Source: Candidatus Niyogibacteria bacterium CG10_big_fil_rev_8_21_14_0_10_46_36
GTDB lineage: Bacteria; Patescibacteriota; Minisyncoccia; 1-14-0-10-42-19
Reading direction: 5' to 3'
Assembly: GCA_002772995.1 (NCBI GenBank)
Contig: PFCO01000003.1
Span: 74,253-136,756, forward strand
Length of the DNA stretch: 62,504 nt
The notes under the pieces are model-generated. The model made no database searches, was not told the DNA's origin, and worked only from the letters and a program-made list of their open reading frames with translations. Each line of letters starts with the position of its first letter. The first letter of the stretch is position 1. The position numbers and the translations under genes are program-made. Below are positions 12,734 to 40,317 of this stretch, piece after piece.

Positions 12734-13984
12734 TTAGAGTATAAATTCTCCTTTTCTTATGACCTGCACAGCTCTGTCGGAATGGGTAATTGCAAAAACA
12801 TCTGTGTGTTCGTCGGATATCATAATGTCCTGATGTATAAGGCTCGCATTTAATCCCGCCGCTTTCAGTTCTTCTGGAGCCATGCTATCGTATCCCGTAA
12901 AACAAAAAGCAAATCCGTTTCCTAGGGCTATGTGGCACGCCGCCTGCTCATCAAAAAGCGTTTCTTTGAATACAATTCCGCTTTGAAAAACCGGGGAATC
13001 AATCCCCACAATGGCGAGTTCGTTGATTCTTCGCGCGCCCTTGTCCGTATCAATAAGCGACTGGAAAATGGAATCCCCCTTTGTGGCAGAAAAAGATACA
13101 AGGACGCCGTTTTTGAATACCATCTCAAGCCCCTCTACCAGCTGATTATTCACCATAACGGGTTTGGTTGCCCGCACATATCCGTTTGCCTTCTTGCGGT
13201 CCGGCGATGTGAATATTTCTTCACTCGGAATATTTGGCTGAAATGTAGCGTTTCGTTTGCTGATTTGAGCGCCTCCGGTGAATATTGATAAAGGCGAAAG
13301 TCCTATTTCCAGATCGGTTCCCGGTCCCTGATAATGAAACCGGTCTATCTTCATTTCGTTCAGTATATTCACGCGGCGCTTCAGTTCCGCATCCAGCTTC
13401 CACAGACGATTAACGCCGTCAGAGTGTGAAGCGCGGGTAATGGAAAAAATATCATCCCAAAGCCGCATTTCTGCTTCTTCTGAAGACATATGAGGATATA
13501 TCTGTTTTGCCCATTGCGGCGTTGCTGCGGCAACAATGCACCAATGCATCGCCGCTTCTCCGATACCTTTCTCATGCAAGCTATGCCTTGATTGTTTTAC
13601 TTGCCTTTGCATCATGCTAATATGGCCCGCGTCAGCTCCATAAAACAATTCTGGAAATTCGCTCCCCCTGATAGAAAGCATTGCCCCCCGTCTCTGCACG
13701 AGCTCATCATAGCGGGCTTTTATGTATGGCGGTAGAAACGCTATATCATTTTCGGAAGAATGCCGCAAGCGCACATCCGTAATGACGGGATCCGACTCCA
13801 TATACGCCGAAAAAGAAACATCAACATACCGCGCTCCTTTCTTATACGCTTTTTTTGCCACAAGTGCGGCAAAATTTCTATGTATCGGCTCCGTCATAAT
13901 GAAAAGCAACTGCCCCTTTTGAATATTCAACCCATATGAAACAGTGATGTCCGCATAGTTTTCTAGCTTTTCTTGAAATGTCAA
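12734..13984 (-). CDS. Aminopeptidase, M29 family (AmpS/PepS-like)
   Basis: PNIPSEEIFTSP, NELAIV, TLFDEQAACHIALG, SLIHQDIMI. Confidence 0.9.
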   Translation of the reverse strand: MTFQEKLENYADITVSYGLNIQKGQLLFIMTEPIHRNFAALVAKKAYKKGARYVDVSFSAYMESDPVITDVRLRHSSENDIAFLPPYIKARYDELVQRRGAMLSIRGSEFPELFYGADAGHISMMQRQVKQSRHSLHEKGIGEAAMHWCIVAAATPQWAKQIYPHMSSEEAEMRLWDDIFSITRASHSDGVNRLWKLDAELKRRVNILNEMKIDRFHYQGPGTDLEIGLSPLSIFTGGAQISKRNATFQPNIPSEEIFTSPDRKKANGYVRATKPVMVNNQLVEGLEMVFKNGVLVSFSATKGDSIFQSLIDTDKGARRINELAIVGIDSPVFQSGIVFKETLFDEQAACHIALGNGFAFCFTGYDSMAPEELKAAGLNASLIHQDIMISDEHTDVFAITHSDRAVQVIRKGEFIL

Positions 13985-16425: not shown

Positions 16426-17388
16426 TTATTCTGGTTTTTCTGAAAAATCGGGCATAAGACCGCATATCTTCATGGCGCGTATAAGCCGGTTAAGGCCGAT
16501 GCCGCCGCCGCATCGCATAAAAAAGTTGAACGAAAGGAATTCTTCCAGTTCCTGGCGGGTTGCCTGTTTCCCAAAACGCCGCTCAAGTTCAGACGCGTAC
16601 AAGCCGTCTTTAATGCTGTTAAAACGCCTCCGCATATCATCACTATCCGTAGAGCGCTCCGCGGATCCTATTGCTTCCATGCCGCACAAGATAACATCTA
16701 TTTTTCTTGCAGTGTTGGTACTCCATTTCCGCTTCATATTCCAAAACGGACTTGTAAATTCGGGGAAATCCGTAAGAAAACAGACCTCGCCGAATAAATC
16801 CCGGAGCTTTTCTTCATGACGGCTTTCTATTTCGTGCCCTTCGTGCAAACGAAGGATAGTCGCAGCGTCGCTATACTCTATCGCGGGGTATTCTTCCTTA
16901 TGCCTATATGCATCATGTTTAGGAAATCCTAAAAACTCGAGCAGGTCTTTGAGCATGCTATGCAATACTTCCATATCGCCATGCGTCTCAAATTCAAACA
17001 TCTGGAACACAAGATCGTGCCTCCCCGCTTCTCTCCGTTGGGGCGGCTCATCCCGATAACTTGTCGTTATACAGCAGCACCCCGTCATAGTCGGGTCTGC
17101 AAGAAGTTCGTACTCAAGCCACATCTGCCCGGTTTGGGGTAACGGTAAGATGCGCGCGCCGAAATCATATTTCATGACATTGAACACATCTTCGCATGCG
17201 GCAAGTATAGATTGCCTTTGCTGCGTCGGCACAAGCACAAACCCTAATTCATCACAGAAAAACCCGAGAAGCTTCTTAATGACATAATCGTATTCGTACT
17301 TGTTCATGAAGCTTACTTCTGACTTTTCACGAATACGCTTTGCGACAGCTTTATTATGCGCCAGCTCTTCCTGGGTCATACAGCTCAT
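16426..17388 (-). CDS. Class IIb aminoacyl-tRNA-synthetase-like protein, catalytic domain only (AsnRS2/asparagine synthetase A-like)
   Basis: Motif 2-like SYRDEP...RHDLVFQMFEFE; EAIGSAER; motif 3 GGGIGLNRL; no N-terminal OB-fold anticodon domain. Confidence 0.8.
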   Translation of the reverse strand: MSCMTQEELAHNKAVAKRIREKSEVSFMNKYEYDYVIKKLLGFFCDELGFVLVPTQQRQSILAACEDVFNVMKYDFGARILPLPQTGQMWLEYELLADPTMTGCCCITTSYRDEPPQRREAGRHDLVFQMFEFETHGDMEVLHSMLKDLLEFLGFPKHDAYRHKEEYPAIEYSDAATILRLHEGHEIESRHEEKLRDLFGEVCFLTDFPEFTSPFWNMKRKWSTNTARKIDVILCGMEAIGSAERSTDSDDMRRRFNSIKDGLYASELERRFGKQATRQELEEFLSFNFFMRCGGGIGLNRLIRAMKICGLMPDFSEKPE

Positions 17389-21754: not shown

Positions 21755-21831
21755 TGGGGTGACCGATGGGGCTTGAACCCACAACCACCAGGTCCACAAC
21801 CTGGTGCTCTACCAATTGAGCTACGGTCACC
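21755..21831 (-). tRNA. tRNA-His(GTG) with encoded G-1 and CCA
   Basis: GGTGACCG...TTGTGGA...GGTTCAAGCCC...CGGTCACCCCA; G-1:C73. Confidence 0.97.
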
Positions 21832-21908
21832 ATCTAAATACAGTGTACTCAAATTTCCTAAATATTCAAGAAAAAGAATGCCCCGTGCACGAACACGGGG
21901 CCTAATCA

Positions 21909-23282
21909 TTATAATGGTTTAAAATCCGCATAAAAATGACGGAGTCCGGGTGCTTCTTCGGTGCTAAACCCGCGCATGCTATCTTTCTTACGTAGCAAAC
22001 GTTCAAATACACATGCAATATAATCAAACGCTATTCGTTTGTATTTACGGCGCGGTATCGCAAGGCGCACCCATTCATATTGCGCAGCGTCCCCAAACAT
22101 AACCGACCCTATCTCACAACTCCGTATACCGCCTTCAAAATAAAGCGCAACCTCCAAAGCTTTCCCTGGAAATTGCTCTTTCGAGATATGGGGCAACATT
22201 GCCGCCGCATCAACATAGACCGCATGTCCACCGGGAGGACAAAGCACCGGCACGCCTATCTTTTTCAGTTTCGCATGAAGATATGCGGTATCTGCTACGC
22301 GTTTTCTCAGATATGACGGCTTCACAACCTCTTTGAGACCTCGAGCAACTGTTTCCATCGTAGCGCCCGTCATACCGGCATAATGCCTAAACCCGTATGT
22401 CCGCAAAAGAAAGCCCATCGTAATATTGGACAACTCTTCAAAGAGATCATCGTGGTCCGTAACAATAAATCCGCCTCCGTTTGCAAGTCCATCCTTCTTT
22501 GCGCTCATATACGCGATATCTGCGTACCCGAACAGTAATCGCACCACATCTTTATAGGAAAAACCCGGCATCTCTTCCCGTTGTACGAAATAGGCATTTT
22601 CAACAATACGGCACGCATCAATAATAAGCAATTTATTGTACTGCTCCGCAAGAATTTTTGTTCTTAAAACATTTTGGAACGAAACAGGCTGCCCGCCACC
22701 GGTATTGTTGGTGAGCGTAAGCAGAATTGCCTTTGCCTGTTTGCCTTTTTCGGACCCGAGATACTCTTCCAGTTTCTGCAGATCGATATCTCCCTTGAAC
22801 GGTGTATTGCTTTCGATATCAAGTGATTTTGGCGTCGGGATATTGATGCATCGCGCGCCCGCATGTTCAAAGTTCGCGCGAGTCGTATCAAAAAATCCAT
22901 TTGAAAGTAAAATATCATTTTCCCGCACCCTTCCTGTTTCTTTGAGAAAATGCGCGATGAGGGATTCCGCCCCTCTCCCCTGATGAACAGGAAGCACATG
23001 CGAAAACCCACTAAACTCTTTTGCTGCCCGTTCAAGCTTTTCATAGCTTGCCGCGTACGCATACGCCTCATCGGCACGATTCTGTAGTTCCATCTGTTGA
23101 TGAGAGAGCTCCCCTGTCCCAGAATCAGTCAACAAATCAACTGTTACCATGCGCGAAGGAATATTGAATAGATTATAGCGCGCCTGTTTCAAAATACGAC
23201 CCCGTTTTTTCCTTGGCATGAATACGGTCTTTTTATGGGGATTTTTCTCAAATGACTTATTCCAATATTTCGTTATCTTCAT
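21909..23282 (-). CDS. tnaA: Tryptophanase (PLP beta-eliminating lyase)
   Basis: VDLLTDSGT, DEAY, HQGRGAE, MSAKKDG; EIG and LRHF rather than the tyrosine phenol-lyase ERG/LRFF. Confidence 0.85.
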   Translation of the reverse strand: MKITKYWNKSFEKNPHKKTVFMPRKKRGRILKQARYNLFNIPSRMVTVDLLTDSGTGELSHQQMELQNRADEAYAYAASYEKLERAAKEFSGFSHVLPVHQGRGAESLIAHFLKETGRVRENDILLSNGFFDTTRANFEHAGARCINIPTPKSLDIESNTPFKGDIDLQKLEEYLGSEKGKQAKAILLTLTNNTGGGQPVSFQNVLRTKILAEQYNKLLIIDACRIVENAYFVQREEMPGFSYKDVVRLLFGYADIAYMSAKKDGLANGGGFIVTDHDDLFEELSNITMGFLLRTYGFRHYAGMTGATMETVARGLKEVVKPSYLRKRVADTAYLHAKLKKIGVPVLCPPGGHAVYVDAAAMLPHISKEQFPGKALEVALYFEGGIRSCEIGSVMFGDAAQYEWVRLAIPRRKYKRIAFDYIACVFERLLRKKDSMRGFSTEEAPGLRHFYADFKPL

Positions 23283-23351
23283 TCCAAGCCTCGTTTTCAA
23301 AAAGCATGTTACTTGCCCAGCATAATACCAAAAAACAGCTGAGATGTCAAA

Positions 23352-23423
23352 ATAAACGGCTCACACCAGGGTGTGAGCCGTTTATGAAAACAAAAAGCCA
23401 CCTCCGGAGAGGTGGCTCGTTTT
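23352..23423. terminator. Two back-to-back GC hairpins between the gamma-lyase gene and tnaA
   Basis: TAAACGGCTCACACC-A-GGGTGTGAGCCGTTTA followed by AGCCACCTC-CGGA-GAGGTGGCT. Confidence 0.7.
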
Positions 23424-23425
23424 TC

Positions 23426-24613
23426 TTACAGATCGCTTAATGCATCTGCAAAATCGTCTTTTATATCTTCTATATCCTCAATTCCAATCGTAAGCCGGAT
23501 AAGCGTGGGCGAAAGACCAAATTCTTGCATTTCTTCCTCGGTGCACGCAACATGCACCATCCCCGCATCAAACTCACCGCGCGTATTGGTAAAGCCGAGC
23601 GAAACAGAAATGTCGAATGTTCTACTCTCTGCAGCAAGGGTGTCAAGGAATTTTTTTGCATCTTCCGGCGTATGCATATCTATAGATATCATCCCGCCAT
23701 ATCCCGTGTTGTTATCCATATGGGTACGCGCGAGGTCGCGATGGACGAACGTATCCAGGCCGGGATAGTGCACCCTCTTTATCTTTGGCTGGTCCACAAG
23801 CCATCTCGCAAGTATAAACGCATTCAGGCCTTGTTTTTTGAGCCGTATATCAAATGTTTTGCACGACCGAAAAACAAGCGAAGCAACGTCAGGGCTCATA
23901 CATGCGCCGTACCTGTGATACTGCTCAATAAAAAGGTTGATATGTTTTTCTTCTCCGATAATTGCTCCCGCAATGACGTCGCCGTGCCCGGAGATAAATT
24001 TTGTAACCGAATGTATGACGAGATGGGCGCCGTGCTCAAGCGGACGGAAATAATACGGTGAGCCGAAAGAATTATCTACCACAAAAAGAATGTTTGTGCC
24101 CGCGATAAGCTTTCCTATCCCGATAACATCTGCCATGGCAAGCGTCGGGTTGGCGAGAAACTCAACAAAGACAACCTTCGTCTTGCGCGTTATTGCTTTT
24201 TTGACTTCTGCGACAGAAGAAGCGTCGACGAATTTCACCTTCATGCCCCACAAAGGAATATCCTTTTCGAACACTTCAATCGTAGTCATGTAGAGCGGTT
24301 TTGAGACTAGTATCTCATCTCCCCTCTTTAAAAATCCGGAGGCAACCAAGCCTGCGAACATCTGCAAAATTGCCGCCATGCCGGATGCGAATGTCAGACA
24401 GTTCTTATATGAGTACGCTTCGGGTTCTTTTATGTATCTGAACTCCAGATGCGCAAGCTCTTCCTCAAGAGCCCGCACAGTGGGATTCCCATGCGCCCAA
24501 CGGCTGTAAACAAAATTGTCATTCTCTCCTGTCATTGATTTTCTGGCACTGTCCACACTATTGAAAGTAAACGCTGCGTCGCGCACTATAGGCGCCGACT
24601 TTTTGTTTTTCAT
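23426..24613 (-). CDS. Cys/Met metabolism PLP enzyme (methionine gamma-lyase/cystathionine gamma-lyase-like)
   Basis: [54 protein letters not shown]. Confidence 0.88.
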
Positions 24614-24735
24614 CTCTAGCACTCCTACACTGCTATGGTAGTTTTTCAAAGTATAAATCGTGGCTATTGTACCACTATAGTCGCAAAAAATCAAGCAAAC
24701 AAAAAAGACGGATCAATGTCCGTCTTTTCTAATTT

Positions 24736-26175
24736 TTATGGGAAAATGCCTTGGTCAAGATAGCACTGCCCTATCTTAGTGATCGCCAAAAAGTATGCCG
24801 CCGTACGCAAATCTATTGTGTCGGAGTATTCTTTCTGTATGACGCGCATCTGTTCAAATGCGGGGATCATCGTTCCTTCAAGGCCGGAAATAACGAGGTC
24901 TTCTTCCGTTGAAAGCCGAGTGACATGTTCTATTCTATTCGGGTCTATTTTTGTATGCGTCTGCTCTTCAACGACAGCCAAAATATTCTGAAGCCGCGCC
25001 TTATCAAAACGCCTGTCTATCTGTCCGAATCCGATATGATTACGGTTCTTAAGCCACTCAAAATATGACACGATAACGCCGCCGGCGTTCAGAAAAATAT
25101 CTGGAACAATCATTGCTCCTTTGCTGAATAATATATCATTTGCGTAAGAACTGGTCGGTCCGTTTGCCGCCTCCCCCACAATCTTTGCTCGTATCTTGTC
25201 CGCATTGAGATGCGTTATCTGGTTTTCAAGCGCTGCGGGAATTAGTATGTCGCAATCAAGCTCAAGGATATCCGAGATGCGCCGTACATTTTTCGTTCCA
25301 GGGAATCCCTTCAGTGTGCCGTGTTCTATGCGGAAGAGCATTGCATCATCAAGCGGAATACCTTTTGCCGAATGAATCGCGCCATCAATCTCGCCCAGCC
25401 CAATAATAATCGCGCCGTTTGCTTCTAAAAACTTTGCTGTATGATACCCGACATTCCCGAGCCCCTGAACAATCACTCGCTTGCCCTCAAGCCCGCAGGA
25501 AAGCCCGAGACGGCCCATAATATCCGGCTGGCTGCACACCTCGCGAAGACCGATAAACACGCCCCTGCCGGTCGCGGACACGCGCTCGCGAAGCCCTCCG
25601 ATAGATATCGGCTTCCCCGTAACGCACGCTGAAGGATTCGGGTCATCATCCGAAGCAAACTGCTTGTAGGTATCGAATATCCATGCCATTTCTTGCGAAC
25701 CGGTCCCATAGTCAGGCGCGGGGACGTCTTTTTCGGAATGAAACACTTTGTGGATATGCGTAAACGTATATGTATAGCGGCGTATGATTCGTTCTATTTC
25801 TGACGGAGAAAAATCTTTTTTGCTTCGTATGCGTATCGTCCCTTTTGCTCCGCCAAATGGCACATCGGCGAGTGCGCACTTGTATGTCATGAGCGCAGCA
25901 AGCGCGACTACTTCATTCTCATCCTGAGCGTCTTCTATCCACCGAAAATTAATACCCCCCTTGGTAGGAAGCTTGTGATAACTATGCCGCGCACGATACG
26001 CATCTATGTTCATAATGCTGCCGTCATCTCGTTTAACGGGCATACTCTCGTGGATAAAGCTGTTACATCGCTTAATCTGCCGCAAAAGACCCGGCTGATC
26101 TTTTTCAAATCTGGTCAGCTCAGCTGCCTTATCAAAGTAGCGGTTTACTTCTTCAAAAAACTTGTAATCGGACAT
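24736..26175 (-). CDS. gdhA: NAD(P)-dependent glutamate dehydrogenase, animal-like type with antenna-like insertion
   Basis: PTKGG, MTYKCA, PFGGAKG, DVPAPD, VTGKP, ATGRG, QGLGNVG, EAANGP, LNAGGVIVSYFEW. Confidence 0.92.
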   Translation of the reverse strand: MSDYKFFEEVNRYFDKAAELTRFEKDQPGLLRQIKRCNSFIHESMPVKRDDGSIMNIDAYRARHSYHKLPTKGGINFRWIEDAQDENEVVALAALMTYKCALADVPFGGAKGTIRIRSKKDFSPSEIERIIRRYTYTFTHIHKVFHSEKDVPAPDYGTGSQEMAWIFDTYKQFASDDDPNPSACVTGKPISIGGLRERVSATGRGVFIGLREVCSQPDIMGRLGLSCGLEGKRVIVQGLGNVGYHTAKFLEANGAIIIGLGEIDGAIHSAKGIPLDDAMLFRIEHGTLKGFPGTKNVRRISDILELDCDILIPAALENQITHLNADKIRAKIVGEAANGPTSSYANDILFSKGAMIVPDIFLNAGGVIVSYFEWLKNRNHIGFGQIDRRFDKARLQNILAVVEEQTHTKIDPNRIEHVTRLSTEEDLVISGLEGTMIPAFEQMRVIQKEYSDTIDLRTAAYFLAITKIGQCYLDQGIFP

Positions 26176-26251
26176 TTGGGGCGTCCTCCCTTTTTATTAA
26201 AGAAAAAAGCGGTCTAAAAACCGCTTTCAGTATACTGCCGGTCCGAAAAAT

Positions 26252-26581
26252 CTACAAGAGAGCGTCTATTTTTGCCGCCTCGATAAAATCATTCTCCGAG
26301 AGTCCACCTGTGGCGTGTGTTGAGAGCTCTATCCGTACCTTATTCCACCCATGCAGAAGAATATCCGGGTGGTGCCCTTCCAATTCGGCAATGTCGGCAA
26401 CCTCATTCACAAAAGCCATGGCCTCCTTAAAGTCCCTATGCTTAAATTCTCTGGCTATTTTCTTACCCCCAAGCACCTCCCAATCAGGGATTTCTTTGCG
26501 CAGAGCCGCGATACGGCTCTTTTCTAAGGGAGACATTCCCGCTTCGCATGGAATGCATTTTTTCTGAATCAAATCGCTCAT
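26252..26581 (-). CDS. Pterin-4-alpha-carbinolamine dehydratase
   Basis: EGHHPD, LSTH, GLSENDF. Confidence 0.9.
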   Translation of the reverse strand: MSDLIQKKCIPCEAGMSPLEKSRIAALRKEIPDWEVLGGKKIAREFKHRDFKEAMAFVNEVADIAELEGHHPDILLHGWNKVRIELSTHATGGLSENDFIEAAKIDALL

Positions 26582-26920
26582 ATATGTATGGTACACAACC
26601 ATACAAAGAAATAAAAATCTTGCCTTGTCAAATAAATGATATAATAGAAGTAGATAGGGAAACAAAATTTACAAACACCCGAAAACTGTTGGGAAATAAG
26701 GCTTATATCGCAAGCTATGCGCTTCTGCGATATTCCTGACAGCACACAGCACAAAACGAATTCCGAACTTTGACAACCCCTCTTTCGCTTGAAAGAGGGG
26801 TTTCTGTCAATAAACTGTGAATAAGTTATGGGTAATACGTTGAAAATGCATGGAAAAATCTGTTCGCTTCCGCATGCCTACCTTAAAAACCATTGAAAAA
26901 TAATAATTTTTCATTAGGTT

Positions 26921-27436
26921 ATGCCAGGGGCTTGTTTACAGGAAGCTCTTGGCATGGCTTGGTGGACACATATATTATTTGCACAAAGAGAGAAGGATTC
27001 CTCTTCAAGAAGAAAAGGGGGGTTCTTCAATACTGGCTACTCGAAATTCAAAAAATATATCAAAAAGAAGTCTATCGACATTCTCTATATCCTTTTTTCC
27101 ATATTCACATATCTCTACCTTGCGGTTTCAGTATTTACATTCTTTTTCCACACATTTGTCCCCGACTCTCTCCCATTTGCGATTGAGGCATTGTCCGATC
27201 CGTATCTCGGAGCGCTCGGTATCTATATCGTCATCCATGGCATTGAGAAAAAGCGCAGAAAAACAAAATCAAAGGGACAATTGTTTGTCCCCCTCTGGAC
27301 GCTCTTCTTCATTATTGCGTCTGTCTTTCTATATTTTGTTCCGGATCAGACACTTGATACCTTATACAAAACAGTAGTAACGAACGCATTTGCAGCAATT
27401 ATACTCCGCGTTGGCATGCTGCTTCGTTACCTATAG
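26921..27436 (+). CDS. Hypothetical multi-pass membrane protein (start uncertain, possibly 26954)
   Basis: About four hydrophobic segments; converges on rplR. Confidence 0.65.
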   Translation: MPGACLQEALGMAWWTHILFAQREKDSSSRRKGGFFNTGYSKFKKYIKKKSIDILYILFSIFTYLYLAVSVFTFFFHTFVPDSLPFAIEALSDPYLGALGIYIVIHGIEKKRRKTKSKGQLFVPLWTLFFIIASVFLYFVPDQTLDTLYKTVVTNAFAAIILRVGMLLRYL

Positions 27437-27439
27437 CAA

Positions 27440-27814
27440 CTAGAGTACTAGGCCTGCCTCGCGGGCGCCTTCTGCGATCGCCTTTGTGCGGCCCTGATAT
27501 TTATAGTGAGAACGGTCAAATACCGCGCGCCGTATGCCTTTTTTGACTGCCGCTTCTCCGAGCTTCTTACCGAGCTCATGAGCAGTTTGTGTTTTTGTCG
27601 TTTTTGCAGCTTTCTTTGCTCCTTTTTTTGCATCTCCTACTCCCATGATGGTCATTCCAGAGACGTCATCAATCAGCTGTGCGTAGGTGTGCTTGTTTGA
27701 ATGGAACACCGAAAGGCGCGGGCGCACGCGTGTACCATGAATACGCGCACGAACTCGCCTCTTTCTGCGTACAATGCCTTCTTTTTTCTTTTGTAATTCT
27801 TTTGCGGTCTTCAT
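27440..27814 (-). CDS. rplR: 50S ribosomal protein L18
   Basis: RPRLSVFHSNKHTYAQLIDD, FDRSHYKYQGR. Confidence 0.97.
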   Translation of the reverse strand: MKTAKELQKKKEGIVRRKRRVRARIHGTRVRPRLSVFHSNKHTYAQLIDDVSGMTIMGVGDAKKGAKKAAKTTKTQTAHELGKKLGEAAVKKGIRRAVFDRSHYKYQGRTKAIAEGAREAGLVL

Positions 27815-27823
27815 ATGAGTTTA

Positions 27824-28372
27824 TTACGCCCCTGTTGTTGCTGCCTTTTTGCCTGCTTTCCGTCTGATCACTTCGCCCTCATACCGAATCCCCTTGCCCT
27901 TGTACGGCTCGGGCTTTCTGAACGAACGTATCTCTGCGGCTACCTCTCCTACTTTTTCTTTATCAATACCGGTAACAATAATGGCATTTTTTTCTACCTG
28001 AAACTGAATTCCTTCTTTCGGCTTTACTTCCACGGGATGCGAGAATCCTAAGCTAAGAACAAGGTTTGTTCCCTGCAATTGCGCACGATACCCGACTCCT
28101 TCTATTTCGAGCTTCTTCGAAAAACCTTCGGTAACCCCGTGAATCATATTTTTGATATGTGAAGCGTATGTCCCCCACAATGCCGCTGATTCAAGGTTTT
28201 CTTTCCGGAGCTTTAATACCACTTCGGAGTCCTTTATTTCTACCTCAATGAGCCGCTCCTTTATAGGACGGGCAAGCTCTCCTTTCGGTCCCTTTACGCG
28301 AACAGTTCCGTGTTCAAGCGACACAGAAACGCCTGCAGGGATTGGAATTGGTTGTTTTCCTATACGGCTCAT
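27824..28372 (-). CDS. rplF: 50S ribosomal protein L6
   Basis: MSRIGKQPI, RKPEPYKGKGIRY. Confidence 0.98.
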   Translation of the reverse strand: MSRIGKQPIPIPAGVSVSLEHGTVRVKGPKGELARPIKERLIEVEIKDSEVVLKLRKENLESAALWGTYASHIKNMIHGVTEGFSKKLEIEGVGYRAQLQGTNLVLSLGFSHPVEVKPKEGIQFQVEKNAIIVTGIDKEKVGEVAAEIRSFRKPEPYKGKGIRYEGEVIRRKAGKKAATTGA

Positions 28373-28380
28373 AATATTTC

Positions 28381-28767
28381 TTACCAAATGCGTGCGATTA
28401 TCTCTCCGCCAACTTTTTCTTTTTCGGCATCCTTCGCCGAAAGCAACCCTTTTGATGTAGACACGATAACCATACCTCGTGAAGAACGGAACGATTTTAA
28501 TTCCTGCCATCCTCCATATATCCGCTGCGACTGTTTTGAAATCATTTTAATTCCGTGAATAACCGGCGCATCCTGCTCATACCGCAAACCAACCTCTATC
28601 GTTCGCTTGTTCTTCTTTCCCCGGCGAGCTGATTCCGTCAAATATTTTTTGTCCTGGAGCAATTTAATAATCTCCATCTTAAATTTAGAATACGGAACAG
28701 ACACACTCTCGTGGCGGGCGCGTGATGCATTGGCTATTCGTGTGAACATGTTTGCTATCGGATTCAT
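28381..28767 (-). CDS. rpsH: 30S ribosomal protein S8
   Basis: NPIANMFTRIAN, IVSTSKG, VGGE. Confidence 0.97.
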   Translation of the reverse strand: MNPIANMFTRIANASRARHESVSVPYSKFKMEIIKLLQDKKYLTESARRGKKNKRTIEVGLRYEQDAPVIHGIKMISKQSQRIYGGWQELKSFRSSRGMVIVSTSKGLLSAKDAEKEKVGGEIIARIW

Positions 28768-28768
28768 A

Positions 28769-28954
28769 TTACCAAGATGATTTTTTAACTCCGGGAAGCA
28801 TGCCTTCATTAGCAAGCTCACGGAAACAAATACGGCACAAATCAAAGTCTCTCATATAGCCATGCTTGCGTCCACACCGAAAACACCGCCGTACAACACG
28901 CGACTTGAACTTTGGCTTCTTTTTTGATCGTGCGATTACTGATTCTTTGGCCAT
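28769..28954 (-). CDS. rpsN: 30S ribosomal protein S14, zinc-binding type
   Basis: RCFRCGR...LCRICFRE. Confidence 0.97.
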
Positions 28955-28962
28955 ATGTCTGC

Positions 28963-29514
28963 TTACTTTGTTTCCTGCTCCTTGCGGAATGGAAATCCTA
29001 AGTGGGTGAATAATGCCTGTGCTTCTTCCTTTGACTGGGCGCTCGTTACAATAGTTATCTCAAATCCAAAAATGAGCTTTGTGTCCTCTCCTACCATCTC
29101 TGGGAATACAATATGTTCCGGAATGCCTATTGTCAAATTACCTGACTGGTCTATCGCGGAGTCTTTCAGTCCGCGGAAGTCACGCGTACGCGGAAGCGCA
29201 ATCGCAATAATCCGCTCTAGGAAGTCATACATGCGCCGTCCACGGAGAGTTGCTGCATACCCGATGGTCTGGCCTTGGCGGGTCTTGAACGTTGCAATAG
29301 ACTGTTTCGCCGCACGCGGAGACAATGCCTGACCCACAATCAATTGCAAATCGCGGACGATTTGTTTCTGTTCCTCTTCATTCCGCCGCCCAACGCCCAC
29401 ATTTACGACAACCTTAATAAGCTGCGGGATCGCCATAGGGTTTGTATATCCGAATTCCTTCTCAAAAAACGGTATGACCTCTTTTTTATATTGTTTTTGC
29501 AATACTGTTTCCAT
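28963..29514 (-). CDS. rplE: 50S ribosomal protein L5
   Basis: [19 protein letters not shown]. Confidence 0.97.
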
Positions 29515-29520
29515 GATGCA

Positions 29521-29844
29521 TTAAATAAGATTTTTGCATTTTTTACATGACCGAACCTTTTTCTTATCTTGGCCTACTTGATATCCTATCCGGGTTGGTT
29601 TGCCGCATGAGCCACACACCACAAGAACATTGGATGCGTGAATCGGCATCGCAAGACTTACCTTTTCTCCTTTCTGTCCTTGCCGGCGTGGCCGCCTGTG
29701 GCGTGTCTGCATATTTATATTCTCAACAATAATACGCTCGTCCTTCGGGAATGTGCCTGCCACCTTTCCAGTCTTTCCTTTATCTTTTCCGGAAAGCACC
29801 TTTACCGTGTCTCCTTTTTTAATTTTTAGCTTTGCGGTCGTCAT
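29521..29844 (-). CDS. rplX: 50S ribosomal protein L24
   Basis: KKGDTVKVLSGKDKGKTG, IHASNV. Confidence 0.97.
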   Translation of the reverse strand: MTTAKLKIKKGDTVKVLSGKDKGKTGKVAGTFPKDERIIVENINMQTRHRRPRRQGQKGEKVSLAMPIHASNVLVVCGSCGKPTRIGYQVGQDKKKVRSCKKCKNLI

Positions 29845-29849
29845 GATGA

Positions 29850-30215
29850 TTACATTACTTCTTGCGCAAGACCGATAATCTTTGTGTACTTTTCGCGCAA
29901 TTCCCGCGGAATCGGCCCAAAAATGCGTCCGCCACGCGGTTCGCCTTTAGCGTCAATAACCACAACCGCATTGTCATCAAATCGTATGTATGAACCGTCC
30001 TTGCGCCGAAATGCTTCGCGCTGACGCACAACAACGGCACGCACTATTTCCTTTTTCTTCAACATTTTACGGGGTTCTGCGAGTTTTACCGATCCTACAA
30101 TAACATCGCCTATCCGCGCGTAACGCTTGCGCGTTCCGCCCAACACCTTAAAGCACTGGATGAGTTTTGCTCCAGTATTATCAGCTACTTGTAACATTGT
30201 TCGGGGCTGAATCAT
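29850..30215 (-). CDS. rplN: 50S ribosomal protein L14
   Basis: [17 protein letters not shown]. Confidence 0.98.
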
Positions 30216-30224
30216 ATATAAAAA

Positions 30225-30473
30225 TTATATCTTACCCACCACAAGCCAGCGCTTCTCCTTTGATAACGGGCGTGATTCCTGAATAATAACGGCGTCGCCA
30301 ACCTGATATTGGTTTGTTTCATCATGCGCTTTGTAGCGCTTGCTTCGTTTGATGAACTTCTTAAACACTGGATGCTTTACATAATTATGCACCTCAACGA
30401 CAGCCGTTTTCTGGCCCTTGTGTGACACTATCTTCCCTTGTAATTTTTTCTTTGTAATTGTTGCGTTATCCAT
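30225..30473 (-). CDS. rpsQ: 30S ribosomal protein S17
   Basis: KTAVVEV, YKAHDE, ESRPLSKEKRW. Confidence 0.97.
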   Translation of the reverse strand: MDNATITKKKLQGKIVSHKGQKTAVVEVHNYVKHPVFKKFIKRSKRYKAHDETNQYQVGDAVIIQESRPLSKEKRWLVVGKI

Positions 30474-30657
30474 GATGTTTTGTATTCAAATGGGTAAGTA
30501 TGCGCGCAATCGTCCGCTTCATCTCGCGTCCCTGCTTGTTGTTCTTCGCCTTCCCCTGTCCTACCTGAAAACGAAAATCGCGCAAGCCGCCCCGGTTATC
30601 TTTGAGCATTTGCATTAATTCTTCCGTATTTCTGTTTTGTATATCTTTCATCTTCAT
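30466..30657 (-). CDS. rpmC: 50S ribosomal protein L29
   Basis: Position in operon; LRDFRFQ...KRTIARILT. Confidence 0.93.
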   Translation of the reverse strand: MKMKDIQNRNTEELMQMLKDNRGGLRDFRFQVGQGKAKNNKQGREMKRTIARILTHLNTKHHG

Positions 30658-30658
30658 A

Positions 30659-31072
30659 TTAATCGCGGAATACTACTTTTGTGCGCATCGGAAGCTTTGC
30701 TCCCGCGCGCCGCAATGCGGTACGCGCATCCTGCTCCGATATGCCGTCGACTTCAAACAAAATGCGGCCTCTTCCTACCTCTGCTACATATTTTGACGGA
30801 TCTCCCTTGCCTTTTCCCATGCCAACTTCCGGCGGTTTTTGGGTGATGGGCTTGTCTGGGAAAATACGGATCCACAACTTTCCTCCTTTCTGCACAAACC
30901 GAGTGATTGCTTTTCGCGCAGCTTCAATCTGGCGTGAATCAACTTCTGCGGCGTCCTCTGCCTGCAATCCGACGCTGCCAAAAGCAATCGTCGTTCCTCG
31001 CGACGCGACTCTGTTCTCATTCCCCCGGAGACGCTGCCATTTTCTATATTTTACTTTTTTCGGAAATAACAT
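30659..31072 (-). CDS. rplP: 50S ribosomal protein L16
   Basis: QIEAARKAI, WIRIFPDKP, MGKGKG. Confidence 0.98.
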   Translation of the reverse strand: MLFPKKVKYRKWQRLRGNENRVASRGTTIAFGSVGLQAEDAAEVDSRQIEAARKAITRFVQKGGKLWIRIFPDKPITQKPPEVGMGKGKGDPSKYVAEVGRGRILFEVDGISEQDARTALRRAGAKLPMRTKVVFRD

Positions 31073-31081
31073 ATGCGTTTA

Positions 31082-31753
31082 TTATTCTTTTTTGACGGCA
31101 TCTTTCGCAAACTTTTCTCCACGGTAAATCCATACCTTGATACCAATATCACCATACGGCAAATGCGCGCGCTCGCGTGCAAAATCAATGTCCGCACGAA
31201 GCGTCTGAAGCGGCACACGCCCTCTCATCAGCCATTCAACACGCGACATTTCAGCACCGCCGAGTCGTCCCGATAATTTTACCTTAATACCCTCAACATC
31301 CCTGTTCGTAATAACTTTATCAAGCGTTTTTTTCATAACGCGGCGGAATGGCAAACGCCGTTCCAGGTCTTCCGCTATCATCTGCGACACTATTGCGGAG
31401 TTACTCTCCGGTGAACGGAGCTCTTCAATAGAAATCTTTACCTCCTGCGGGATTGTAAGCTTGGTGCGCTGCATATGCCGGATGATGTCCTTGCGGAGCG
31501 TATCAATGCCCTCCCCCTTCTTTCCGATAAGCATACCGGGGCGGGATGTGCTGATGATAAAATGCAGTAATGTTGGAGAACGCTCAATGCCGATATCCGC
31601 AACATATGAGCCGCGGAGGCGCTTGGTAAGCCATTCACGCATCAATACATCGCCTTTCAAAAAACGATGATATTCTTTTTTATCAAACCAGCGCGACTTC
31701 CAATCGCGAATGATGCCTAACCGAAATGAATATGGATGAACGTTGTGACTCAT
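31082..31753 (-). CDS. rpsC: 30S ribosomal protein S3
   Basis: HPYSFRLG, GRLGGAEMSR, PLQTLRADID. Confidence 0.98.
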   Translation of the reverse strand: MSHNVHPYSFRLGIIRDWKSRWFDKKEYHRFLKGDVLMREWLTKRLRGSYVADIGIERSPTLLHFIISTSRPGMLIGKKGEGIDTLRKDIIRHMQRTKLTIPQEVKISIEELRSPESNSAIVSQMIAEDLERRLPFRRVMKKTLDKVITNRDVEGIKVKLSGRLGGAEMSRVEWLMRGRVPLQTLRADIDFARERAHLPYGDIGIKVWIYRGEKFAKDAVKKE

Positions 31754-31756
31754 ATA

Positions 31757-32254
31757 TTATGCTTTTGCTTTTTTCTTTTCTTCCTTCGCCTTTGTTTCTT
31801 TCTTTACTGCTGCCGGTTTTGCTATTTTTTTAGGCTCTTTCTTGGGAGCTGCCGCCTGTTTTCCTGCGCGTGCTGTCTTTTTTTCTGCCGGCGCCCCTGC
31901 TGTTTTCTGAGCATGCCCCTTCTTTTCGTCCAATACTACAGTGATATGGCTTGTCTTTTTACGGATGAGCGTTGCCCGGCCCATGGCTCGCGGGGAATAC
32001 CGCTTGAGCACCGGGCCTTCGTCTACCCATATCTTTGCTACGTATAAATCCGCGCTCTCCATCTGAAAATTATTCTTTGCGTTCGCTTCCGCCGACTGCA
32101 GCAATTTTTTCATCGGTAACGATGCCCGCTTTGGGAGAAAGGAAAGAATCCGTATTGCTTCTTTTACGTTCTTTGTTCGTATGGAATCTGCAACAAGCCG
32201 CACTTTGCGGGGCGCTATCCGAAGATGCTTCAATTGTGCTTTTACTGCGGACAT
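31757..32254 (-). CDS. rplV: 50S ribosomal protein L22 with Lys/Ala-rich C-terminal extension
   Basis: [26 protein letters not shown]. Confidence 0.97.
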
Positions 32255-32263
32255 AATCATTTA

Positions 32264-32581
32264 TTATGATGCTTTCTTTGCCTGTAATTCTGCTGTCTTA
32301 GCGCGCATTTCGGCTTCTTTCTGTATCTTTCCTCCGTGTCTTACGAACTTACGCGTAGGCGCGAATTCTCCAAGCCGATGTCCGACCATCTCTTCGGCAA
32401 CTTTTACCGGAATAAAATCTCTTCCATTGTGCACTCCGAATGTAAACCCAACCATCTCTGGCGCAATTTGGGAATCGCGCGACCATGTTTTAATAACCGC
32501 ATCGCCCCCCGGCTTCAATACGCTTATCTTTTTCAATAATTTTGGATCTACATACGGACCTTTTTTTGCTGAACGTGTCAT
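32264..32581 (-). CDS. rpsS: 30S ribosomal protein S19
   Basis: [18 protein letters not shown]. Confidence 0.98.
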
Positions 32582-32582
32582 A

Positions 32583-33416
32583 TTATCGTTTCCTTTTCTT
32601 GCGCCCTTGCACAATTAATGTGTTGGAATATTTCGTTTTTCTTCGTGTTTTTACGCCGCGCACTCCCTTGCCCCACTTGTTCTTCGGACGGCGGGTGCCG
32701 CGGAGCGCCCGTCCTTCTCCTCCACCGTACGGGTGATCAACCGGATTCATAGCGGAACCGCGCACAGTCGGACGTATACCCATCCACCGGCTGCGGCCTG
32801 CTTTCCCATACACGACAAAGCTATGCTCAATATTTGAAACCTGCCCCACACTCGCCCAGCACGCGCTTAATATCTTACGAACAGTCCCTGAGGGGAGTTT
32901 TATTAATGTATATCCCGAGTCATGCGCCATGACTTCTGCGGTGTTCCCCGCAGAGCGCACCAGCCGTGCGCCGCCCTTAGGATAAGTTTCGATATTATAC
33001 ACCGAAGTACCCACCGGTATCAAGTCGAGCGGTAACCGGGCGCCAAGTACCGGCTCCTGCTTTCTGCCGGTCAGCATAGCGTCTCCTTTCCGCATTCCTT
33101 CAGGCACTACATGATAACGATGCTCACCGTCCGCATATATGACATGTGCTATAAATCCCGTGCGGTTCGGATCATATTCTATGCTTAACACGCGAGCCGG
33201 TATATCTATTTTGTCGTACCTAAAATCAACTTCCCGCCATAAGCGCTTAGAACCGCCGCCCTTGTGGCGGGTTGTTATCTTTCCGTTTGCACGGCCCTTC
33301 GCACGCTTCCGCCCTGAAACAAGTTTTTTATACGGGCGAGACTCGGTTAATACCTCACGATACGAGATCGTGGTCATTTTCCGCCGCGATGGAGTTGTCG
33401 GTTTATATGATTTCAT
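32583..33416 (-). CDS. rplB: 50S ribosomal protein L2
   Basis: [29 protein letters not shown]. Confidence 0.98.
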
Positions 33417-33420
33417 ATGA

Positions 33421-33864
33421 TTACACAAATTCTATTTTTTCACCCGCTTTCAAGGCAACCATTGCTTTTCTGTATCCTGACTTTGTCCCAGTAACGCCGC
33501 GGAGCACTCGGCGTTTCGGCCGTACCCACGACACATTTACCGATGCAACATGAACCCGGTATAGTTCCTCCACTGCTTTGCGGACTTCATTTTTTGTAGC
33601 GTCATCTTTCACCCGAAATGTGTAAACGCCCTCCTCAGCTAAGCGTGCCGATTTTTCCGTTACTGAAGGATGTACCAAAACACGCGCAGCGCGATCTGAT
33701 GCGTATGTTGTTGTTTTTTCTTTCTCCGGCGCGCCATCCTTCTTTGTTTCGGACGTTGTTTCTGTCTGCTGCTGGATTTTTTCTTTTGTCCGCTCGCGAT
33801 AGCGCACCTCTCGCCCTTCTTCCTTCCGTCCTTTTTTCTTTTTGAAGATATCGAATAATGCCAT
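33421..33864 (-). CDS. rplW: 50S ribosomal protein L23 with charged N-terminal extension
   Basis: PSVTEKS, KNEVRKAVE, YRKAMVALKAG. Confidence 0.95.
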   Translation of the reverse strand: MALFDIFKKKKGRKEEGREVRYRERTKEKIQQQTETTSETKKDGAPEKEKTTTYASDRAARVLVHPSVTEKSARLAEEGVYTFRVKDDATKNEVRKAVEELYRVHVASVNVSWVRPKRRVLRGVTGTKSGYRKAMVALKAGEKIEFV

Positions 33865-33868
33865 GGTG

Positions 33869-34516
33869 TTACGAAACTTTCTTTTCTAATACGGAAATGC
33901 TTTCCTTCGGCAGCACGACAAACTGCGAACCCAAAAGCTCAGAGACATTTACATTGCGCGCCTCCATAACAGTAATACCCTCAATGTTCCGGAGCGCCCG
34001 GATAGTTCCGGTGTCGCTTACGGGAATAAGGATAAGCGCCTTACTTGCCCCCAATCTTTCAAATCCTTCAATACTTGAAAGCATCTTCAATACGGATGCC
34101 GCATCTTTTGTTTTTGCCGAAGCAAAAACAAACTCATCAAGCACTAAAACGGTATTTTCGCGGAGCTTTTGGGAAAGCGTCGAAAACACTGCTTTGTGCT
34201 TCATTTTTTTGTTTATTTTTTTGGTGTAATCCTTTTCTGTGCGGGGACCGTGCGTAACACCTCCTCCAACCCATATCGGAGAACGTGTTGAGCCGTGCCG
34301 CGCTCGTCCGGTACCTTTTTGACGCCATGGCTTTTTCCCTCCTCCGCGCACTTCACCGCGATCCTTTGTGTGCGCCGTTCCTCTGCGTTTATTTGCACGC
34401 TCAGACTCAGCAACCTGCCAGACAAGTGCAGGACTCCACGCAACATCAAAAAGCGCACTTGGCATTTCAAGCGTTCCCGCCTTCTCTCCTTTTTGGTTAT
34501 ATACGGTTGCTTTCAT
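33869..34516 (-). CDS. rplD: 50S ribosomal protein L4
   Basis: TKDRGEVRGGGKKPWRQKGTGRARHGS. Confidence 0.98.
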   Translation of the reverse strand: MKATVYNQKGEKAGTLEMPSALFDVAWSPALVWQVAESERANKRRGTAHTKDRGEVRGGGKKPWRQKGTGRARHGSTRSPIWVGGGVTHGPRTEKDYTKKINKKMKHKAVFSTLSQKLRENTVLVLDEFVFASAKTKDAASVLKMLSSIEGFERLGASKALILIPVSDTGTIRALRNIEGITVMEARNVNVSELLGSQFVVLPKESISVLEKKVS

Positions 34517-34522
34517 ATATTA

Positions 34523-35155
34523 TTACTTCTTTACCGAAGCCTCTTTCCCTTTTATCTCAAGAAGCGTCCCCCATGCCCCGGGCAATGCTCCCTTGAGCGC
34601 AATGATATTATTTTTTGCATCTACCTTGACCACCCGTACGCTTTTAAGCGTGACGCGGTCGCTGCCCATGCGTCCTGCCATGCGCAGACCCTTGATAACG
34701 CGCTGAACGCCTCCTGTTCCGATAGAGCCCGGCTCGCGTTCCGAATGCTTCTGTCCGTGTGACCGGGGTCCGCCATGGAATCCATGCCGTTTTACCACCC
34801 CTTGAAATCCTTTTCCCTTAGAAATACCACTTACTTCTACTTTTTCTCCTTCTGTAAACACTGAGACATCTATTGTGTCCCCCGGTTTCATTTCTTCTTC
34901 AGTATGAACTTCCCTCATCCAACGGAGATTCTCTTTGCCAGCATGCTTTTTGAGATGTCCCGCCTGAGGCTTCTTCATCTTATTCTTGCTCTTCTGCCCA
35001 AAACCAACCTGCAAGGCGCTGTAACCGTCCTTTTCATTGGTCTTTGTTTGGGTGACAACAATGGGTCCAGCTTGCACCAAAGTCACGGGAATTGCATTTC
35101 CCTCCTCATCAAATATCTGCGACATTTCTAATTTTTGGCCTAAAATAAACTTCAT
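34523..35155 (-). CDS. rplC: 50S ribosomal protein L3
   Basis: GQKLEMSQIF, SKGKGFQGVVKRHGF, MAGRMG. Confidence 0.98.
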   Translation of the reverse strand: MKFILGQKLEMSQIFDEEGNAIPVTLVQAGPIVVTQTKTNEKDGYSALQVGFGQKSKNKMKKPQAGHLKKHAGKENLRWMREVHTEEEMKPGDTIDVSVFTEGEKVEVSGISKGKGFQGVVKRHGFHGGPRSHGQKHSEREPGSIGTGGVQRVIKGLRMAGRMGSDRVTLKSVRVVKVDAKNNIIALKGALPGAWGTLLEIKGKEASVKK

Positions 35156-35235
35156 ATATGTTCTATACATTGAAAAAATCCCGGCATAACGGGATCTTTT
35201 CAAGCATCATACCCGAATAATGCACTTTGGCTATG

Positions 35236-35658
35236 TTACATCATTTTTACTTCTATATCAACGCCTGCTGGCAAGTTCAGGTTAGTCAGCGCATCAATGA
35301 TGCGAGGCGTCGGATTAAGGATGTCTATCAGCCGTTTATGGATTCTCATTTCAAATTGCTCGCGTGCATTCTTGTGCACGAATGTTGAGCGGTTTACGGT
35401 GTATTTACGTATCTCAACCGGAAGTGGTACGGGGCCCGTAAGCTCCGCGCCGTATCGGCGCGCGGTTTCTACAATCTGCTTTACTGACGTATCAAGAATT
35501 TTATGATCGTATGCGCGAACGCGAATGCGCAGCTTCTGAGGCAACGCTTCTTCAGCTGCTTTTTTTTTCTTCGGTGCTGCCGGTTTTGCTGCCACCTTCT
35601 TCGGTGCGCTCTTTTTGGAAGCGCTTTTCTTTTTTGCTTTTGATTGAGTCGCTGTCAT
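35236..35658 (-). CDS. rpsJ: 30S ribosomal protein S10 with Lys/Ala-rich N-terminal extension
   Basis: [29 protein letters not shown]. Confidence 0.97.
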
Positions 35659-35666
35659 GCGCTCGC

Positions 35667-36860: not shown

Positions 36861-37013
36861 AATGTCTTATGTGAAAATATATAATAAAAAAATAAAAAAA
36901 CCTTTTTATAAGGATATAGAGACCATAGTAACGGAGACTTAAAAATAAGTCAAGCGCCGAGACTCCCTAAAAATTACCCTCCGACATTTCCCGCCGCCGC
37001 CCTTTTGTATAAG

Positions 37014-37040
37014 AAAAACCGCGCGTTTGCGCGGTTTTTT
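37014..37040. terminator. Terminator after the fusA-tuf inserted genes
   Basis: AAAAACCGCGC-GTTT-GCGCGGTTTTT. Confidence 0.85.
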
Positions 37041-37053
37041 GCTTTTTTGTGCT

Positions 37054-37521: not shown

Positions 37522-37545
37522 TGCCCTCCTTTTTTAATTTTTATC

Positions 37546-39835: not shown

Positions 39836-39844
39836 ACCAATGTA

Positions 39845-40315: not shown

Positions 40316-40317
40316 AA

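Follow-up and report, generated by a model that had tools for sequence, protein, structure and literature searches.

A candidate amino-acid-deaminating gene neighbourhood with a refilled glutamate dehydrogenase slot in a groundwater Parcubacterium

Gene content and transcription signals of the locus

We analysed a 62,504-nucleotide stretch of contig PFCO01000003.1 (hereafter the window), in which three genes of amino-acid metabolism lie next to one another. They encode a glutamate dehydrogenase (GDH), a pyridoxal-phosphate (PLP) enzyme of the Cys/Met-metabolism family and the tryptophanase TnaA. The original prediction had described them as three adjacent same-strand genes led by Shine-Dalgarno (SD) sequences, and a scan of the window for open reading frames (ORFs) bore this out, with three intact ORFs on the minus strand spanning 21909-26175. 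The GDH gene (24736..26175, minus strand) encodes 479 aa with the Pfam domains ELFV_dehydrog_N and ELFV_dehydrog. The Cys/Met gene (23426..24613, minus strand) encodes 395 aa and matches Pfam Cys_Met_Meta_PP (PF01053) with 310 bits; its longest ORF is 23426-24694, and the start at ATG 24613 agrees with the N-termini of homologues. The tnaA gene (21909..23282, minus strand) encodes 457 aa with the Pfam domain Beta_elim_lyase (PF01212). Within its longest ORF, 21909-23300, translation probably starts at ATG 23282, because the N-terminal stretch SFEKNP..K.T.F is kept in the closest relative. The SD sequences, read from the DNA, are AAGGGAGGA ahead of the GDH gene, GTAGGAG ahead of the Cys/Met gene and ACGAGG ahead of tnaA. 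About 79% of the window ORFs are on the minus strand; the co-orientation of the three genes is therefore uninformative.

The gene upstream of GDH encodes a PhhB-like pterin-4a-carbinolamine dehydratase (PCD; 26252..26581, minus strand; 109 aa; Pfam Pterin_4a 104.6 bits; best NCBIfam model 119 bits). Its catalytic motif, E-x3-HHP-x6-W-x9-H-x8-D, was recognized by eye. PCD is the upstream neighbour in all five contigs compared here, namely the window, three related Logan contigs (L003, L004 and L007) and a contig from a Niyogibacteria metagenome-assembled genome (MAG; L005). The syntenic left boundary of the block is a predicted membrane ORF of 171 aa (26921..27436, plus strand), which lies between the gene for ribosomal protein L18 and PCD and has no Pfam match. 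The downstream neighbour of tnaA is a tRNA-His(GTG) gene (21755..21830, minus strand), found by both ARAGORN and Rfam and kept in L003 and L004. The Rfam scan of the window returned only tRNAs and RNase P, with no riboswitch or leader RNA at the locus and no rRNA.

A stable hairpin with a U-run follows the 3' end of every gene in the block, with dG of -12.4 to -21.3 kcal/mol and z of -4.3 to -6.5; in a test with 200 shuffles, none (0/200) folded as well. The hairpin after the PCD gene (26205..26228, minus strand; dG -12.4 kcal/mol, z -4.3, 0/200 shuffles) resembles an intrinsic terminator, and its sequence is found identically in L003 and L007. The terminator-like hairpin and U-run after the GDH gene (24700..24731, minus strand; dG -15.4 kcal/mol, z -5.2) is homologous to one that follows a non-orthologous GDH gene in L003. 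Two hairpins follow the Cys/Met gene, a terminator-like one with a U-run at 23395..23418 (minus strand; dG -20.9 kcal/mol, z -6.5) and a second at 23362-23391 (minus strand; dG -21.3 kcal/mol, z -6.5). The terminator-like hairpin and U-run after tnaA is at 21880..21901 (minus strand; dG -19.2 kcal/mol, z -5.2).

Sites resembling sigma70 promoters precede the genes. The Cys/Met gene has TTGATT-17-TACAAT with a TG element at 24666..24694 (minus strand), with counterparts at 3821-3849 of L003, at 4380-4408 of L007 (TATAGT) and at 852-880 of L004. In L004, the TTGATT...TACAAT promoter precedes a Rid-family gene and then the Cys/Met gene, which thus share it. The site ahead of tnaA at 23322..23350 (minus strand) reads TTGACA-17-TATTAT, with 11/12 matches and an extended -10 element, and its counterpart at 5164-5192 of L003 reads TGGACA-17-TATTAT. 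From this promoter the 5' untranslated region of tnaA would be about 35 nt. The putative GDH promoter at 26229..26257 (minus strand; TTGTAG-17-TATACT) overlaps the stop codon of the PCD gene and abuts the PCD hairpin. The window copy scores under the threshold of the promoter scanner, and we infer its function; its counterpart in L007 (TTGAAG-17-TATAAT, 10/12 matches) also abuts the hairpin and the site is conserved in the alignment. GDH transcripts would start inside the 5' arm of the PCD hairpin, so that this hairpin would stop only PCD transcripts.

Because each gene has its own terminator-like hairpin and promoter-like site, conserved in relatives, the sequence supports the PCD, GDH, Cys/Met and tnaA genes being clustered yet separate transcription units. 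A single operon was rejected on the same grounds, with a hairpin and U-run after every gene and a promoter-like site before each. The earlier suggestion that hairpins between the genes mark separate units thus gained sequence support, from the folding energies and shuffle test as well as from the promoter sites and their conservation.

Identity of the three enzymes

TnaA scored 471.5 bits against the NCBIfam tryptophanase subfamily model PRK13238 (cutoff 285) and 168 bits against PF01212. It fell under the strict equivalog cutoffs of TIGR02617 (326 vs 826 bits) and NF053783 (361 vs 750 bits). The indole-pocket residues that separate TnaA from tyrosine phenol-lyase (TPL) we take to be Asp137, Ile396 and His463 in E. 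coli numbering. At these specificity positions the window protein has Asp, Ile and His (FFDTT, SCEIGS, LRHF), and the PLP-lysine motif SAKKD is present. The corresponding segments are HFDTT, AVEIGS and LRHF in Proteus TnaA and YFTTT, SMERGI and LRFF in the TPL structure 9J3U. The D-I-H-K signature is found in 112 of the 120 nearest TnaA homologues, and the rest have D-V/A-H-K. TPL was rejected as the identity of this enzyme, since Asp, Ile and His stand where TPL has Thr124, Arg381 and Phe448. The product of 21909-23282 is thus, as a well-supported assignment from sequence, a tryptophan indole-lyase.

Compared with the tryptophanases of Proteus vulgaris (1AX4) and E. coli (2OQX), the window enzyme is alike in fold, SAKKD motif and specificity residues, and it scores about 300 bits against the structures of known tryptophanases. 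The gene differs from the known systems in having neither a tnaC leader peptide nor a tnaB permease and in being monocistronic. In a distance tree the parcubacterial TnaAs cluster together, apart from those of WOR-3, Acidobacteriota and one eukaryote. TnaA is annotated in many MAGs, and 61 homologues have been reported from 12 phyla of the candidate phyla radiation (CPR), with a proposal of indole signalling (PMC7567580). The idea that tnaA is unusual for a CPR genome therefore did not survive.

Both Pfam domains of GDH, PF02812 and PF00208, match the window protein. Its best sequence match in the PDB is animal GDH1, with 391 bits over the full length, as against 268 bits for prokaryotic GDHs. 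The window protein has the same residues for glutamate binding and catalysis as bovine and human GDH, namely K(KGG), K(GGAKG) and S(VSYFEW), and all columns that are invariant across a 32-sequence alignment are present. These residues and profile matches, like those of TnaA, uphold the gene names of the original prediction. The AlphaFold2 model has a pLDDT of 85 and contains helices 388-406 and 412-419 before the pivot helix 424-449, with pLDDT <50 at 381-390. Foldseek TM scores of the model were 0.88-0.91 with animal GDH as against 0.73-0.80 with prokaryotic GDH. In sequence, the alignment extends across the antenna region, where gaps amount to about 10 residues. The enzyme is predicted to belong to an animal GLUD1-like subgroup with a shortened antenna-like insert. 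With animal mitochondrial GLUD1 and its relatives in the Fibrobacterota-Chlorobiota-Bacteroidota (FCB) group it shares a full-length alignment, including the antenna and pivot-helix region, and the same substrate and catalytic residues. It differs from GLUD1 in that the antenna-like element is about 10 residues shorter, with low model confidence at its base, and that the host is a CPR bacterium.

The best matches of the window GDH, at 55-57% identity, are FCB-group enzymes from Calditrichota, Gemmatimonadota, Balneolaceae, KSB1 and Latescibacteria, and in a distance tree it is sister to the FCB-group clade. Other GDH homologues of about 470 aa, whose named sources are mostly of the FCB group, also align with GLUD1 through the antenna region. 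According to a 2025 paper, microbial GDHs lack the antenna helix (PMC12364357). A bacterial GDH clade with an antenna-like insert may deserve a look of its own.

The third enzyme was harder to name. In an alignment to methionine gamma-lyase (MGL) 1GC0, it keeps the equivalents of PLP-Lys211, Tyr59/Arg61, Tyr114, Asp186 and Arg375. It has YMTT in place of YGCT, so that C116 is replaced, and Y/H in place of K240/D241. The family-wide loop GDAESL..HPA.MTH is replaced by a divergent version that begins GFT[NQE], and there are five clade-specific insertions. The YMT motif and YH(R) for KD are found in the window enzyme and in all four (4/4) other members of its clade, while LYGCT is found in 64 of the 115 nearest homologues outside the clade. 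The enzyme scored under every NCBIfam equivalog cutoff, including TIGR01328 (271 vs 550 bits) and NF005695 (273 vs 666). The YGC (Cys116) and KD (Lys240-Asp241) motifs have been described as required of MGLs (PMC11568061). Identity as an MGL was rejected, as both motifs are absent and the equivalog cutoffs are missed. The labels cystathionine gamma-lyase, cystathionine beta-lyase, cystathionine gamma-synthase and sulfhydrylase were rejected as well, because no curated cutoff was reached. The earlier name, Cys/Met gamma-lyase, thus stands only at the level of the family.

The fold agrees with the family assignment. The AlphaFold2 model has a pLDDT of 91 and a TM score of 0.88 to MGL structures, and gamma-synthases match too. 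MGLs, such as those of Pseudomonas putida (1GC0) and Citrobacter freundii (2RFV), match best both in sequence (217 bits) and in structure; PLP-Lys211, Tyr114 and Arg375 are shared with them, whereas Cys116 and KD are lost, the loop is changed and the five insertions are added. The clade itself is small. A search of 5.8 billion proteins gave five members, the four relatives being 64-65% identical to the window enzyme, with the next matches at <=39%. In an exhaustive HMMER scan of 1.84 billion representatives, the self cluster scored 894 bits and the best single-domain match after it only 255 bits. When JGI metagenome contigs were scanned with the clade alignment, no close relative was found (best 31% identity), and 185,579 species genomes gave one match, in the Niyogibacteria MAG and not in the genome of the window itself.

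The gene context of the relatives bears on the chemistry. A Rid-family gene lies immediately upstream of the Cys/Met gene in L004 and L005, and the one in L005 reaches 146 bits, above the cutoff of 106. Tryptophanase and cystathionine beta-lyase are among the enamine-producing PLP lyases with which RidA is known to be clustered (PMC4433059). Because of these two upstream Rid genes and the known association of RidA with PLP lyases, we favour an enamine-releasing elimination. The arrangement in L004 and L005 is like the RidA/PLP-lyase pairs of Niehaus et al. 2015 (PMC4433059); the window has GDH there instead. No remnants of RidA were found in the long spacer between the GDH and Cys/Met genes of L003 and L007. 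By this analogy the Cys/Met enzyme is probably an eliminating lyase.

Host, synteny and inheritance

The best named TnaA matches, at about 50% identity, come from Taylorbacteria, Yanofskybacteria, Niyogibacteria and the "Parcubacteria group". Among named sources, the closest homologue of the Cys/Met enzyme belongs to the groundwater Niyogibacteria MAG, one contig of which shows synteny for the membrane ORF, PCD and Cys/Met gene. In the NCBI lineage, Niyogibacteria fall in the Patescibacteria group, Parcubacteria group, and the locus was found in groundwater metagenomes. Assignment of the host to the CPR is well supported by these data, in agreement with the earlier view of a CPR-like genome; its position within the Parcubacteria is given only as near Niyogibacteria. 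The best named homologues of two genes, the synteny with the MAG and the groundwater source all contribute to the assignment.

Two independent assemblies carry the locus, a 90-kb ENA contig and a 459-kb contig. Low-coverage contigs from other groundwater runs span its junctions at 26118-26761 (PCD and GDH), 24484-24837 (GDH and Cys/Met) and 23138-23612 (Cys/Met and tnaA). These contigs come from four groundwater runs and are fragments at 2-5x depth, which is enough to span junctions and too little for coverage analysis. A chimera at the locus, which the original prediction had allowed for, was rejected in view of the independent assemblies, the junction-spanning contigs and the synteny in relatives.

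In L003 the order is L6, L18, an opposite-strand membrane ORF, PCD, GDH, Cys/Met, TnaA and tRNA-His, and L007 has the same order up to the Cys/Met gene, where the contig ends. L004 has PCD, Rid, Cys/Met, TnaA and tRNA-His, followed by ORFs of 235 aa and 147 aa, a phosphorylase and asparaginyl-tRNA synthetase-like genes as in the window. In L005 the order is membrane ORF, PCD, PMT (-), GDH (-), RidA and Cys/Met. The complete order of GDH, Cys/Met and TnaA is thus found only in the window and L003, and L007 agrees up to its end. Three genomes have the Cys/Met gene next to tnaA, and PCD is near the Cys/Met gene in five contigs.

Identity between the window and its relatives is graded. It is 75-80% for L6 and L18 (L003, L007), 60-70% for PCD (L003, L004, L005, L007), 64-65% for the Cys/Met enzyme and 52-61% for TnaA, and the membrane ORF shares 76% with its counterpart in L003, 75% with that in L007 and 55% with that in L005. 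The three genes have third-position GC content (GC3) z values of -1.3 to +1.0 and codon-usage z values of +0.1 to +0.8 against the other genes of the window. There is no GC step at the locus, and no integrase or transposase was found in the window. From these graded identities, native codon usage, lack of a GC step and lack of mobility genes, it follows that the block is ancestral to a small lineage. Sequence comparison indicates that, with the exception of the GDH slot, the neighbourhood is inherited vertically within this narrow lineage and is not a recent island. The possibility raised earlier, that the cluster is common and vertically inherited, thus holds only as regards inheritance, and common it is not.

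The GDH slot has a different history. L003, L005 and L007 have GDHs in this slot with which the window GDH shares only 32-35% identity; these fall into two types that are 37-40% identical, and in L004 a Rid-family gene fills the slot. Both hairpins that flank GDH are nevertheless homologous between the window (26205-26257 region and 24700-24731) and L003 (2226-2248 and 3598-3626), in which the GDHs are 32% identical. Homologous flanking hairpins around unlike GDHs suggest that the ORF was exchanged between conserved regulatory elements. As judged from the sequences, non-orthologous GDHs or RidA have taken over the slot while the hairpins around it were conserved, and GDH alone among the three genes looks xenologous. 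The claim of an acquired amino-acid fermentation island therefore survives for GDH alone, which looks foreign by its FCB best matches, and fails for the block, given its native codon usage, conserved flanks and lack of mobility genes.

Two further features of the neighbourhood were seen in the relatives. An 83-aa ORF lies 3' of tnaA in L004 (4178-4429) and directly 3' of the Cys/Met gene in L005 (6392-6643), which suggests that tnaA was lost from, or inserted at, this position in one lineage. The ribosomal-protein operon of the window (27440-40740, minus strand) ends after L18 (rplR) and is followed by the membrane ORF and the PCD/GDH block; S5, L15 and SecY were found neither after L18 nor elsewhere in the window. 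The break after L18 is also present in L003 (33-968) and L007 (186-1494), which makes it a trait of the lineage rather than a fault of the assembly.

Proposed function and alternative explanations

We favour, with moderate confidence, an amino-acid-deaminating neighbourhood in a vertically inherited lineage context with a refilled GDH slot. The four monocistronic genes, for PCD, GDH, the Cys/Met enzyme and TnaA, would form a lineage-specific chromosomal neighbourhood in a groundwater Parcubacterium. GDH, the Cys/Met enzyme and TnaA would strip the amino group from scavenged amino acids, yielding 2-oxoacids and ammonia. TnaA would convert tryptophan to indole, pyruvate and ammonia. The Cys/Met enzyme would act on an amino acid that probably contains sulfur and, by PLP-dependent alpha,beta- or alpha,gamma-elimination, split it into a 2-oxoacid, ammonia and a leaving group. 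GDH would interconvert glutamate with 2-oxoglutarate and ammonia and so close a transdeamination. Overall, the products would be pyruvate, 2-oxobutyrate, 2-oxoglutarate and ammonia, with indole and perhaps a thiol as by-products. In this proposal we infer that flux runs in the catabolic direction, that the Cys/Met enzyme acts as a lyase and how the cell would use the products.

Several observations weigh against this proposal. The three genes are in separate transcription units, which makes their functional coupling conjectural; tnaA is solitary in Yanofskybacteria, Taylorbacteria and Gr01-1014_44, and it is on another contig in the Niyogibacteria MAG. With MGL identity rejected, the reaction proposed for the Cys/Met enzyme is guesswork. 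No RidA was found anywhere in the window, and neither an aromatic amino-acid hydroxylase nor a pterin gene was found there, which leaves the role of PCD unexplained. A search for RNA runs carrying the locus found none.

The same enzymes could serve salvage or biosynthesis in an auxotroph. TnaA would then run in reverse or catalyse beta-replacement, making tryptophan from indole with pyruvate and ammonia or with serine or cysteine, the Cys/Met enzyme would be a gamma- or beta-replacing synthase or sulfhydrylase that makes methionine, homocysteine or cysteine out of scavenged precursors, and GDH would fix ammonia in glutamate. The reversibility of GDH and TnaA is established enzymology and speaks for such a use. 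So do several properties of the Cys/Met enzyme, which has neither of the lyase-specific YGC and KD motifs, scores nearly equally on sulfhydrylase or synthase models and on MGL models, and shares its fold with gamma-synthases. CPR bacteria are, moreover, without most amino-acid biosynthesis (PMC5220378). However, two relatives have a Rid-family gene just ahead of the Cys/Met gene, a sign that an enamine or imine is released and hence of elimination, and the window offers no visible source of either 2-oxoglutarate or activated homoserine. Tryptophan synthesis by TnaA also needs high substrate concentrations. We consider such salvage or biosynthesis unlikely.

It is distinctly unlikely, in our judgement, that the main selected output is a signal or weapon, with indole, and perhaps volatile thiols, affecting hosts and neighbours, instead of a gain in carbon, nitrogen or energy. 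Such a module would fit the wide distribution of TnaA in CPR and the indole signalling proposed for it (PMC7567580), the syntrophic role proposed for methioninase products in Patescibacteria (PMC11568061) and the intact specificity residues of the window TnaA. There is, however, no sensor or regulator nearby, and signalling leaves GDH and the repeated refilling of its slot by GDH or RidA unexplained; it is also compatible with the deamination proposal rather than exclusive of it. The genes might instead form no functional module at all, their adjacency being a synteny relic of independently transcribed, unrelated housekeeping genes. The promoter and terminator of each gene, the placement of tnaA elsewhere in the Niyogibacteria MAG and alone in other Parcubacteria, the lack of an obvious link between PCD and the other genes, and the co-orientation expected at ~79% minus-strand ORFs are what this explanation predicts. 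Against it, the Cys/Met gene and tnaA stay adjacent in three genomes and PCD stays near the Cys/Met gene in five contigs, while the slot beside the Cys/Met gene always holds a GDH or Rid-family gene, including three mutually non-orthologous GDHs. That constancy suggests selection for a deamination-related partner, and we find mere adjacency quite improbable. That the block is an island for amino-acid fermentation acquired recently, or that the contig is chimeric, is largely refuted and in our view very improbable. The non-CPR best matches of GDH and the tRNA gene at one end of the block would suit an island, but the codon usage and GC3 are native with no GC step, integrase and transposase are absent, both flanks, tRNA-His and the regulatory elements are kept in relatives, and independent assemblies and runs back the junctions.

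The deamination proposal has company in the window. Other genes for amino-acid handling fit its catabolic theme, namely those for an M29 aminopeptidase, an aldehyde dehydrogenase and class-III aminotransferase, a DDAH/arginine-dihydrolase-like protein and an acyl-CoA dehydrogenase. The aminopeptidase at 12734-13984, from which the original prediction had the pathway fed, was confirmed by PF02073. The aldehyde dehydrogenase and class-III aminotransferase genes adjoin and are co-oriented (45016-48083, minus strand), a pairing typical of lysine or omega-amino-acid catabolism. The best NCBIfam match of the aldehyde dehydrogenase is L-piperideine-6-carboxylate dehydrogenase, at 561 bits and under the cutoff of 730. 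The DDAH/arginine-dihydrolase-like gene, a weak match, is at 49215-50228.

The window has other features of note. The acyl-CoA dehydrogenase, whose best match is the acryloyl-CoA reductase AcrC (266 bits, under the cutoff), and a membrane fatty-acid desaturase are encoded at 3952-5169 and 8358-9443, respectively. Both are unusual for a CPR genome presumed to have no lipid and respiratory metabolism. A bacterial RNase P class A RNA lies at 55166-55606 (plus strand, 109 bits); the ORFs 55144-55368 and 55328-55615 are spurious because they overlap it. A 679-aa protein encoded at 45-2084 (plus strand) is built from Ser/Thr/Asn-rich repeats, each about 90 aa long, with a transmembrane segment at the C-terminus and a charged tail; it resembles a protein of the cell surface. 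A 320-aa protein resembling class-II aminoacyl-tRNA synthetases, encoded at 16426-17388 (minus strand), consists of the tRNA-synt_2 core only, without an anticodon-binding domain, and is syntenic in L004 (11696-12610). By its sequence it may be an AsnA-type or other paralogue.

TnaA in CPR, GDH in a Parcubacterium and MGL in Gracilibacteria have been reported earlier (PMC7567580, PMC5220378, PMC11568061). What is modestly new here is an isolated, rare Cys/Met subfamily with an altered active-site signature, a clear case of GDH displacement by non-orthologous GDHs between conserved hairpins and an animal-type GDH with an antenna-like element in a CPR genome. A more speculative idea, which we hold as a doubtful but conceivable one, is that the Cys/Met enzyme represents a new specificity class of the PLP gamma-family, acting on a substrate other than methionine, cystathionine or homocysteine and confined to a few Niyogibacteria-like CPR, and that with TnaA and the replaced GDH/RidA partner it makes up a dedicated deamination module. 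If so, such a module would give these ultra-small bacteria a source of carbon, nitrogen or energy without sugar fermentation. If the catabolic interpretation is true, some groundwater Parcubacteria would gain pyruvate, 2-oxobutyrate, 2-oxoglutarate and ammonia from tryptophan, glutamate and a third amino acid, and would release indole, and perhaps thiols, into their consortia. The picture of CPR bacteria as pure sugar fermenters would then be refined.

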